From contig JALDZX010000058.1 in assembly GCA_022813865.1 (NCBI GenBank), positions 62,001 through 126,000 on the forward strand: a stretch of 64,000 nucleotides of DNA. Direction: 5' to 3'. The stretch is from Xylographa opegraphella (lineage: Eukaryota). Shown here piece by piece: positions 35,545 through 38,210 of the stretch; position 1 is the stretch's first letter, and each line of letters begins with the position of its first letter. The position numbers and the translations under genes were made by a program. Below the pieces are notes generated by a model that saw only the letters and a list, made by a program, of their open reading frames with translations, was not told the DNA's origin and searched no databases.

Positions 35545-36776
35545 TAAACCTAAAACTTTACGTCTGGCGCAAATATTGTTGAGCAGTTCTTAGGGCTTCA
35601 ATGAAAGGGCGAATCAGGCATCGAGTGTTTGATAGCGATTCATGCAAGCGTAGAACACAATTTCTCTACTTCTCTACTTCTCTACGCCAGAGGTACTCGA
35701 TCGTGGTGGGAGAAAAGCGATATGCGAAGAATATGTTGTGCTCACTTTCCATCTCTCCATTGCCCTCAAGAAAAGCCCGGCAACCTAACCCTGTATACTA
35801 CATATTCCTGCCATCTCAAAAACTGCCCCTCAAGGACTACGATGCCCATGACTTCATATCCCACAGTGATCGGGATCTGGCCGCCTTACCGTAACATTCC
35901 CTTCAGGAAATGCCGTAAAGGCTTCTTATATCACCAATTTCCTGTTATTGGCTCGAAAAACTCTCACTTGCGGTGGGGACACCAGCTCTCCCGACCCACG
36001 ATGTTTTCTTCGAGCTACCTAGCACTTTGCCTTACGTGCCTTCCTGGTACAGGATGGAGGACTGGGATTGGGCTAATATGTGTGAGCAAAGCTAACCGAG
36101 CCAGTAAGTAGTATGTATGCTATTGTGTACGATGAGGAAATGACAGGCTATCAATTGCACGGAATGATGCATAGGTGCATATATGTCACTTCAGACATGT
36201 ATTATCATCATTCATGCAAAGTAGACATATATGTGTGTACTGAATGGGCAAAGGTCAGCAGAATTCACTCGATATTAGAGAGATGCAACCCATCAGTACG
36301 ACATCATTTCCGCCTCCCTATATCTACAGCAGTATCTGCAGGGACAGGGTGGCGGAATCTCTTCCATTTTAAACTTGTCAAACAACAACAGCTCACAAGA
36401 TCGACCAACCCTAAACAGCCTCCAGCCCTGCCTCTCAACCAGCGCGTGAGCGAACTCTTCAGATGTAGCAAGTGCTCGATAGCAAACATACGAAGGCCAG
36501 TGCAACAAGAAAAATTGACAAAGGCACAACCACAGCTCGTAACCCAATACAGACAGATACCCTATTCTCCAAGCTCGCATCACGATCGTCGCCTCGAATA
36601 GCCGCCGTTGTAGGAATCGAAACGAATCGACAGGGAGGAGAGGAGAATATATAAGGTGTCGATGTGGAATTGTCGAATTAGGGAGTGTTGCCGCTACGAA
36701 ACGCGGTCGATGTTGGCTGGTAACGATATTATCTGCGCCCGAACCTGCTGCACAAGGAAAGTTTGCGTTGGTACAT

Positions 36777-37980
36777 TTACTTCTTCTTCTGTTTCCTTGG
36801 AGGAGTGACGGGCCTGCCAGTGTTCATGCCACCGTAAACGTACTTTTGTTTTTTCTCTGCTGGTTTCAAAATCTGCAGAACGAGAACCGTAGATTAGCTC
36901 CCGCACTCCCAGAACGATATGAACTGATAAAGCAATCGGCTATCGTACCTGGAACGAACACAACAAACTCTCGTCCACGCTCATCATAGCTCCCGCGTTG
37001 TCAAATTCGCCGCAGTAGTTCGGTGCGCTGAACAGAGTGACGAGCTGTCGTTTTGAAAAAAACTCGTAGCCGTCTTCGACAACTTGGTGGGCTCGGCAGA
37101 TGAGGTCCATGTCATGCTTCTGTAAGAACCGAGACACGACGTCAGGCCCAAACGTGAAGGAGACACCACGGTCATTTTCACTCCAGCCCGTGATGTCCTT
37201 GTCTGGATCTGACCACAGCAGGTCGCAGAGCAAGCCGCAGTCGGGAATCTAACGCAGTCAGCGGATCACCACGCAATTCGCGTTCCAGCTCAAGGGCAAT
37301 ACATAGTTGCCCTTGTTTTGGGAGATGAGCACAACATACATCGGTTGGACGCATCACACGTCGAATCTGCTCCATTGAGTTCAGATCGGGGCTAAGGCCA
37401 CCATGCATAGTAAATATTTTTTCGTCAATAATGGCTGCAATGGGCAAGCAGTTGAAGCAATCAGTGAAGGTTTTCCAGAGCTTGATATTGTACCTTCTCT
37501 TGCACTCATCGTAGAATCCGTAGATACGGTTAATCGAAGCACACTCATGGTTCCCTCGCAGTATGAAGAAATTCTCTGGGTATTTGATTTTGTAGGCAAG
37601 TAGCAGGCAAATAGTCTCTAAGGATTGCTTGCCTCTATCGACATAGTCGCCAAGAAATAGGTAGTTGGCCTCGGGAGGGAATCCTCCGTACTCGAAAAGA
37701 CGGAGAAGATCATAGTACTGCCCATGTATATCTCCACATATCTATGAATCAAAGTGTTTCAGTTAGCGGTCTGACCAATATATAGAATTCCCGCACTGAC
37801 CTTTATTGGCGCTTCAAGTTCCAGCAATATGGGTTGAGAGATAAAGATCTCCCTCGCTTTTGTGCAAAGATAACGAATTTCGGTCTCCAGCAACTGGACT
37901 TGCTTCCCTGGCCTGCTACCCCTCACCTCCAAGAGTCTGTCGATGATGGAGTCCAGGTCCACATCGTTCTGATCTGCCAT
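36777..37980 (-). CDS. GLC7: Ser/Thr protein phosphatase PP1 catalytic subunit (Glc7/BimG)
   Basis: [51 protein letters not shown]; 3 coding introns; unspliced tail [24 protein letters not shown]; possible alternative stop at 36729. Confidence 0.97.
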
Positions 37981-38089
37981 AGCTTACTGCTAAGATCGCC
38001 TTTGTGTATGGGTATGGTCGTTCGCAGTCTAAGCCAGACCCCGGGTCCTTCACGCGGCCGTTGTCACTGCACTGCCTTTTGACCGTCAG

Positions 38090-38210
38090 CTAGGCAAGAG
38101 TGGAAAGTGTTAGCATGGTGCCTACTTGTCAACAAAGATCTTTCCAGTAATGGGAAAAAAAGAGGCGGGTGACAATCGGTCTCAAAAAGAAGACAAGGAA
38201 GCACACCAAC
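38090..38210 (-). other. Probable 5'-UTR intron of PP1
   Basis: GTTGGT donor, GCTAAC branch site, pyrimidine tract and CCTAG acceptor about 110 nt upstream of the ATG. Confidence 0.5.

Follow-up and report, generated by a model that had tools for sequence, protein, structure and literature searches.

A PP1 gene of Xylographa opegraphella with an optional last intron predicted to switch between a CDK-site tail and a short FGRR tail

The described systems closest to the one reported here involve either retention of an intron or duplication of a gene. In the mammalian protein phosphatase 1 (PP1) gene Ppp1cc, retention of intron 7 gives PP1gamma1, which ends after a few intron codons and a stop, and its removal gives PP1gamma2, which has a 22-residue tail encoded by exon 8; the sites and exon 8 are described only from mammals, and the switch lies after residue 315 (PMC6930163, in the part available). 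Fission yeast also has two forms of PP1, Dis2 and Sds21, only one of which has a C-terminal threonine through which cyclin-dependent kinases (CDKs) can inhibit it; inhibitory CDK phosphorylation of this residue is described for metazoans and for Dis2 (Thr316), whereas Sds21 and budding-yeast Glc7 lack it (10.1101/190488, in the part available). For PTC7 and SKI7/HBS1 of Saccharomyces cerevisiae, retained and spliced mRNAs give distinct functional proteins, with gene duplicates in other lineages (PMC3597508; PMC6506691, each available in part). Here we describe a PP1 gene in a 64,000-nt stretch of the genome of Xylographa opegraphella (contig JALDZX010000058.1, positions 62,001 to 126,000), which we refer to as the window and to which all coordinates refer. 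Very probably this one gene has an optional last intron, such that retention yields a tail with a Thr-Pro-Pro-Arg (TPPR) CDK site and removal yields a short tail ending in FGRR or NRFGRR, both kept by selection.

The fungal arrangement resembles Ppp1cc in that the last intron of a single PP1 gene is kept or removed and a small downstream exon provides the other C-terminus, but the position and the outcome differ. Alignment of PP1 sequences places the Ppp1cc switch downstream of the CDK site, so that both mammalian forms keep TPPR, whereas the donor in the window follows residue 304 and lies upstream of TPPR; splicing also shortens the fungal tail where it lengthens the mammalian one. With mammal-specific sites on one side and a donor after residue 304 on the other, the fungal event does not correspond to the PP1gamma1/PP1gamma2 switch, and because the Ppp1cc event is specific to mammals the two arose independently. 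The likeness to Dis2 and Sds21 lies in having two PP1 forms with the CDK-inhibitable threonine on only one, in that case from two genes rather than as two splice forms, and we claim no sequence relationship between the Sds21 tail and FGRR. In the PTC7 and SKI7/HBS1 cases, which involve other genes, it is a targeting signal at the N-terminus that is affected, not a regulatory tail at the C-terminus. Conceptually the fungal PP1 switch matches the equivalence of splicing and paralogues that they illustrate (PMC3597508), although PP1, GLC7 and dis2 do not occur in that paper.

The gene is on the minus strand and has four exons separated by three constitutive introns of 59, 91 and 76 nt, all with GT..AG ends. 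Exon 1 matches the Pfam family STPPase_N (PF16891; 88 bits), and exons 2 and 3 match Metallophos (PF00149, calcineurin-like phosphoesterase; 117 and 34 bits), all above the curated cut-offs. The translation includes GDIHGQ, GDYVDRG and RGNHE, which we take to be signature motifs of the PPP family. The exon 3 peptide is 100% identical to dozens of Pezizomycotina proteins named PP1 or glc7, and the protein of a close relative (Lobaria P0212) matches the solved chains of PP1-beta, PP1-alpha, PP1-gamma and yeast PP1-2 with E values from 1e-193 to 1e-198, including a match to solved PP1 at 3.7e-198 with collinear tails. From its domains, its near-identity to named proteins and its TPPR site we assign the gene as a PP1 catalytic subunit of the PPP family and as the predicted orthologue of Glc7, BimG and Dis2.

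Features of the optional intron are listed in Table 1. The donor, TACCAAC and tandem acceptor given in the preliminary description, and the products that it derived for retention and for splicing, are all found at those positions in the sequence and in the computed translations. If the intron is kept, the protein is 325 residues long and ends in the TPPR tail. Removal of 99 nt with the distal AG gives ...KKQKFGRR followed by a stop, and removal of 96 nt with the proximal AG gives ...KKQNRFGRR followed by a stop, such that the choice made at the NAGNAG site would set K or NR in front of FGRR. A short pyrimidine-rich stretch lies between TACCAAC and CAGCAG, and the acceptor is 27–33 nt downstream of the long-form stop. 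The window thus carries all parts of the ascomycete PP1 tail switch, namely a donor at Lys/Tyr-Val, an acceptor past the long-form stop and an FGRR mini-exon.

Table 1. Features of the PP1 gene and its optional last intron, in window coordinates
Feature	Position	Strand	Details
Long-form coding sequence (CDS)	36777..37980	minus	325 aa; exons 37980-37801, 37741-37340, 37248-36949, 36872-36777; from gene model and translation
Alternative 5' splice site GTACGT	36838..36843	minus	CAAAA/GTACGT, G at 36843; last base of Lys AAG plus Tyr-Val codons TAC GTT
Optional intron	36745..36843	minus	99 nt; or 36748-36843, 96 nt, with the proximal AG; if retained, 21 residues and stop
TPPR codons ACT CCT CCA AGG	36795..36806	minus	homologous to the inhibitory CDK site; lost on splicing
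Stop of long (retained) form, TAA	36777..36779	minus	from sequence
Candidate branch-site region TACCAAC / GCAAAC	36761..36773	minus	TACCAAC at 36773-36767; no CTRAY consensus
NAGNAG tandem 3' splice site CAGCAG	36745..36750	minus	CAG 36750-36748, then CAG 36747-36745
Mini-exon G + TTC GGG CGC AGA + TAA	36729..36744	minus	G at 36744, TAA at 36731-36729; encodes (K)FGRR and stop; within the 3' untranslated region (UTR) of the long form

Two other classes of event were considered and set aside. The arrangement is not an exitron, as the acceptor is outside the long CDS, past its stop, and the introns of relatives are mostly not multiples of three; it is therefore better described as a retained last intron with an alternative terminal mini-exon. 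Nonsense-mediated decay (NMD) is triggered when a splice junction lies downstream of the stop codon, and an NMD switch was set aside because this is the case in neither form.

To compare the arrangement among relatives, 80 metagenomic loci were retrieved with the exon 3 peptide, and the 30 that match it at 93% protein identity or more (L001-L030) were examined; those at 87% identity or below (L031-L080) are probably not fungal and were left out. Seven of the 30 (L002, L003, L004, L006, L011, L024 and L026) are cDNA-like, with contiguous exons and no introns. GTACGT, GTATGT, GTAAGT or GTAGGT is present at the same Lys codon in 20 of the other 23, and the three that have no donor (L027, L028 and L030) end in KYAYGG, KYPYG and KYSYG, tails that look unlike those of filamentous ascomycetes. 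The contigs of L018, L020 and L021 end before any acceptor, which leaves 17 informative loci, and in 15 of these a YAG acceptor precedes a mini-exon. Their predicted spliced ends are KQKFGRR, KQKFGRK, KQKFGRRQ, KQKFGRRG or KQKFGRGR, each followed by a stop. The acceptor is tandem in 12 of 16 genomic rows. The optional introns of these relatives are 54–111 nt long and mostly not multiples of three, which argues that it is the spliced product that is preserved and not a reading frame through the intron. Such recurrence of donor, acceptor and post-stop mini-exon is more than chance would be expected to produce; the preliminary description had named GTACGT, the CAG and the FGRR mini-exon as the elements to compare among orthologues.

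The mini-exon was aligned in 22 rows, 15 genomic (the window included) and seven cDNA, with L010 dropped as identical to L007 in this segment. Codon 1 is TTC or TTT and codon 2 GGG, GGA or GGC, so that F and G are present in 22 of 22 rows; codon 3 (CGT, CGC, CGG, CGA or AGG) is R in all 22 and codon 4 is R in 20, with one K and one G. The stop follows directly in 18 rows and one codon further on in the remaining four. Column entropy is 0 at the first and second positions of codons 1 and 2, and 0.3 and 0 at those of codon 3, whereas third positions have 0.8–1.9 bits and the 3'UTR beyond the stop has 1.6–2.0 bits per column apart from two columns at 1.5 and 1.2. Fixed first and second positions together with free third positions, in front of an unconserved UTR, indicate that the mini-exon is translated as a peptide.

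This pattern also bears on the possibility that the splice serves mainly to tune mRNA fate (3'UTR length, stability or translation) and hence the amount of PP1, with the change of tail being incidental. Splicing does take out about 100 nt and alter the context of the stop, and a retained 3'UTR intron in mouse Ppp1cc strongly affects expression in testis (PMC6930163, in the part available). Conservation of F-G-R-R codon by codon with free third positions points, however, to selection on the peptide, and neither form offers an evident trigger for NMD. We regard an explanation by mRNA fate as extremely unlikely.

The retained tail also bears the marks of a translated sequence. Among seven loci with TPPR tails (the window, L015, L016, L017, L019, L022 and L025), the 21 pairwise comparisons give 148 synonymous and 55 non-synonymous codon differences, the latter clustered in codons 16–20. 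A ten-residue stretch of the tail is invariant as protein in all seven, and eight of its ten codons vary synonymously. The codon pattern indicates that the TPPR tail is under purifying selection. The tail of Lobaria P0212 is one residue different from that of the window and can be aligned, gap-free, with the ...GRPVTPPR end of solved PP1-beta, which identifies TPPR as a homologue of the CDK site in animal PP1 and in Dis2. Tails of the TPPR type are widespread outside the ascomycetes, and we therefore take the long tail to be ancestral and the splice option to be an addition to it.

Four loci have lost the long tail. In L005, L014 and L018, with GTAGGT or GTAAGT donors, retention reads KQK and then a stop at once, and in L008 it reads a junk peptide. 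Where tails have decayed, a Ser/Thr-Pro site with basic residues after it often survives (SPRTKK, SPRHKK, TPRKQSK and SPAKPKKK), although there is no such site in L007, L009 or L010.

Transcripts of relatives were found in metatranscriptomes. Four of the seven runs recovered in a search of RNA runs (X1, X2, X3 and X5; from soil and wood decay) were aligned to 36500-38100 at 80% likeness. The joint of constitutive intron 3 (36872 to 36949) is present in all four (2, 2, 3 and 2 contigs) and that of intron 1 in X1 and X3. An X3 contig with a depth of 18.3 joins 36747 to 36844, skipping 96 nt with CT..AC ends on the plus strand, corresponding to GT..AG on the strand of the gene. The same skip is present in X5 record 22 (depth 21.5), which covers 36500-36747 and continues with 13 letters equal to 36844-36856. 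An X2 contig runs up to 36744 and continues with the same 13 letters, as expected of the 99-nt splice. Junctions at 36747 in X3 and X5 and at 36744 in X2 show use of both tandem acceptors in these relatives. In X1 no contig crosses the optional intron by a junction, and positions 36662-36715 are uncovered.

The retained form is represented by X2 record 7, which is unbroken over 36500-36869, and by X5 record 21, unbroken over 36500-36872; X3 record 15 extends beyond the acceptor to 36760. An X2 contig ending at 36872 continues with letters translated as ...VDETLLCSFQ, which is exon 3 with intron 3 removed. This contig has exon 3 joined without intron 3 and the optional intron kept, and a retained-form mRNA therefore exists in a relative of Xylographa opegraphella. 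Two other joints, 36754 to 36829 (skipping 74) and 36760 to 36828 (skipping 67), were rejected as splices as they do not have GT..AG ends, and are read as diverged stretches of relatives. The joints of intron 2 in the metatranscriptome contigs are scattered (37248 to 37341, 37344 or 37352, and 37242 or 37245 to 37340), with a few letters between; these most likely reflect relatives with different codons at the exon borders and not alternative splicing.

Annotated proteins present the same event in other fungi. Three consecutive GenBank accessions of Blastomyces are 325 aa, 309 aa ('variant 1') and 308 aa ('variant 2') long and identical over their first 303 residues (to ...ILKPAEKKQ), and their tails are the long form, ...NRFGRR and ...KFGRR, exactly as predicted for the window. 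Trichophyton rubrum has consecutive records of 308 and 309 aa, T. tonsurans has a 325-aa record, and Exophiala dermatitidis has a 309-aa 'variant 1' ending in KQNRFGRR. The variants of Blastomyces, T. rubrum and E. dermatitidis correspond to the event described here, with all three tails similarly encoded in the window; those species are Eurotiomycetes and the variants are bare annotations, whereas the window is lecanoromycete-like. The claim that the PP1 gene 'hides' the intron is accordingly too strong, since annotations of a few species already include such variants. The tandem site is a NAGNAG acceptor at which both AGs would be used, with a one-codon difference in the product, as they are in the contigs of relatives, the cDNA contigs and the GenBank variants.

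Elsewhere the annotated proteins have one tail or the other. Long TPPR tails are present in Penicillium, Aspergillus terreus and A. parasiticus, Talaromyces, Coccidioides, Elaphomyces, Geopyxis and lichen fungi, the tail of Wetmoreana P0085 being exactly that of the window. KQKFGRR is annotated in Colletotrichum, Fusarium oxysporum and Ophiocordyceps, and KQNRFGRR in Zymoseptoria, Elsinoe, Delphinella and Exophiala, and Pseudogymnoascus has either tail, one in each of two strains. The preliminary description gave a long tail for A. nidulans BimG and KQKFGRR for Neurospora-type PP1; the division between Aspergillus-type and Sordariomycete-type tails holds for A. terreus, A. parasiticus and Penicillium on one side and for F. 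oxysporum, Colletotrichum and Ophiocordyceps on the other. Protein clusters at 90% identity merge the long and short forms, which can be separated through the lists of cluster members.

The named lichen-fungus models P0042, P0061, P0082, P0083, P0085, P0204 and P0212 are all long-tailed, as would be expected if the intron were always retained in this organism, with only the long form made and the mini-exon an inherited remnant that serves in other lineages. Such models are weak evidence, though, as the long open reading frame (ORF) is the one that gene predictors favour. The donor, the tandem acceptor, the FGRR codons and their stop are all intact in the window, and in the lecanoromycete-like L016 and L022 the same elements are intact and have changed only synonymously or conservatively. 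The junction is moreover crossed at both acceptors by contigs with about 90% identity to the 3'UTR of the window. Constant retention is thus very unlikely, and an intron that is optional in this organism too, with both forms made, is the reading that we prefer.

Several other models are unusual. In seven lichen-fungus PP1 models (P0064, P0025, P0065, P0068, P0070, P0073 and P0084) the last exon and 3'UTR are read in a wrong frame (...VQQVRAQI...); in P0064, from Xylographa bjoerkii, the wrong-frame peptide is almost that encoded by 36694-36939 of the window (minus strand), and the N-terminus is identical, which fits a probable origin of the window in a lecanoromycete close to this genus, most likely a lichen-forming one. 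The models of Arthrobotrys (P0076), Saitoella (P0089) and Phyllachora (P0032) end in ...KQKKKNNPFGNRSQRFE, ...YTYGGMGGGRFGR and ...KQKGFGRR, respectively, which may reflect different choices of splice site or short tails of independent origin.

The ascomycete-like cDNA contigs from the locus search all have the short tail (7/7), five ending in KQNRFGRR and two in KQKFGRR. L002, L003, L004, L006 and L011 have complete ORFs of 308 or 309 aa, and L024 is partial. Exon 3 DNA identity between cDNA contigs and genomic loci is 82–86% throughout except for L002/L018 at 95%, and assignment of the contigs to lineages by this measure failed, with synonymous sites saturated. Matching of N-terminal peptides places L003 as Sordariomycete-like and L002 and L004 as Dothideomycete-like, with L006 and L011 unplaced, so that none of these cDNA contigs can be traced to a lineage in which the TPPR tail is intact. 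L026 (484-783) has an in-frame stop (GWS-stop-ND) and a Thr-to-Pro change in exon 3, perhaps through an error in sequencing, transcription of a pseudogene or an artefact of editing.

The uniformly spliced cDNA contigs, as well as the loss of the long tail in L005, L008, L014 and L018, fit an alternative in which the intron is always spliced out and only the short FGRR form is a real protein, the long ORF representing precursor RNA or a gene-predictor reading. Conservation of the retained tail as protein in the lineage of the window, despite many synonymous changes, requires that it be translated, and its collinearity with the tail of animal PP1-beta is similarly at odds with a precursor. Contigs that keep the optional intron also come from RNA libraries in which intron 3 is removed, and in Blastomyces the 325-aa form is annotated beside the short variants. 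We consider constitutive splicing highly unlikely.

A number of observations nonetheless weigh against an optional intron from which both forms are made. The search of RNA runs found no run of Xylographa opegraphella; the seven metatranscriptomes that it returned hold 0.05–0.16 of the sampled words, and contigs covering the 3' end are about 89–90% identical to the window and derive from relatives, not from this organism. In X2 and X5 the retained and spliced contigs differ at 3'UTR variants (e.g. 36565, 36670, 36678, 36698 and 36701), and may come from two related taxa each favouring one form. With all seven cDNA contigs spliced, the long mRNA may be a minor form or, in some lineages, an unspliced precursor. 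L025 and L029 have a donor-like site and no FGRR-type mini-exon within 1.1–2 kb downstream. Lastly, the weight given to the GenBank 'variant' records presupposes that they rest on transcript evidence. Against these points stand the conservation of mini-exon and tail, the cDNA contigs, the junctions and retention in relatives, and the Blastomyces variants, which support the proposal of the preliminary description that one PP1 gene gives a long TPPR tail and a short FGRR tail.

L025 (2334-4300) combines a GTACGT donor with an intact long tail one residue different from that of a Geopyxis (Pezizomycetes) model (P0207), with no FGRR in about 2 kb downstream. Going by this single contig, the earliest branches of the filamentous ascomycetes may have split off before the splice option arose.

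The optional intron is also distinguished by its branch site. None of 12 dual-coding alternative introns contains the branch-site consensus CTRAY, as against 12 of the 13 copies examined of constitutive intron 3. In the window the last 50 nt of the optional intron contain no CTRAY, and the other three introns have CTAAC, CTGAC and CTAAT. In 11 of 13 dual-coding rows, those of the window and L016 being the exceptions, a different motif, [AG]CGA[AG]C, precedes the end of the intron by 20–23 nt. Among loci without a usable long tail, L005 has CACTAAC, L008 has TACTAAAC and L014 has TATTGAC, in short introns of 54–57 nt. The missing consensus suggests a deliberately weak intron, in which the branch-point base would lie somewhere within 36761-36773. 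Keeping the branch site weak would probably leave splicing incomplete and allow both mRNAs to coexist, and lineages that dropped the long form would have let the intron become efficient, short and with a consensus-like branch site.

The two forms are expected to differ in their control. With the intron kept, PP1 would have the ancestral eukaryotic tail with the Thr-Pro site that CDKs phosphorylate to inhibit the enzyme; with the intron out it would have neither the CDK site nor the PxxP stretch. As the CDK site is only on the TPPR tail, the short form would be CDK-blind, and by analogy with Sds21 and with Glc7, whose tail in the solved-chain alignment is without TPPR, we infer that it escapes CDK inhibition. 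Xylographa opegraphella would make both forms, and the ratio of long to short may be regulated. The switch is seen in eurotiomycete-, lecanoromycete-, leotiomycete-, dothideomycete- and sordariomycete-like genes. A further proposal, which is possible although we hold it only tentatively, is that this is an old and regulated device of the crown filamentous ascomycetes, in which the weak, non-consensus branch site sets the share of PP1 that is immune to Cdk1- and Cdk9-type kinases and in which FGRR has a binding or targeting role of its own.

Full-text literature searches, which lacked most subscription journals and supplementary files, found no description of a fungal PP1 tail switch. In the available part of a 2019 review of fungal phosphatases, alternative splicing is mentioned only for mammalian PP1gamma and yeast PTC7 (PMC6506691). 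The event itself is already in the databases, but there appears to be no published account of how deeply it is conserved or of what it implies for function. There are consequences for annotation, in that Pezizomycotina gene models give one tail or the other, seemingly at random. The locus is also a natural example of dual coding, with intron signals (the Lys-Tyr-Val donor and the weak branch site) and protein constraints in the same sequence.

Filamentous fungi use one PP1 gene for functions in mitotic exit, transcription termination, polarity and the clock, and how a single PP1 is both under and free of CDK control is not addressed in the available part of the same review (PMC6506691). A conserved splice switch of the CDK site would be a concrete and easily tested answer to this dual control of one PP1, and for genetic work in model fungi it supplies a long-only and a short-only allele ready to use. 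If the proposal is true, splicing does in these fungi what fission yeast does with Dis2 and Sds21.

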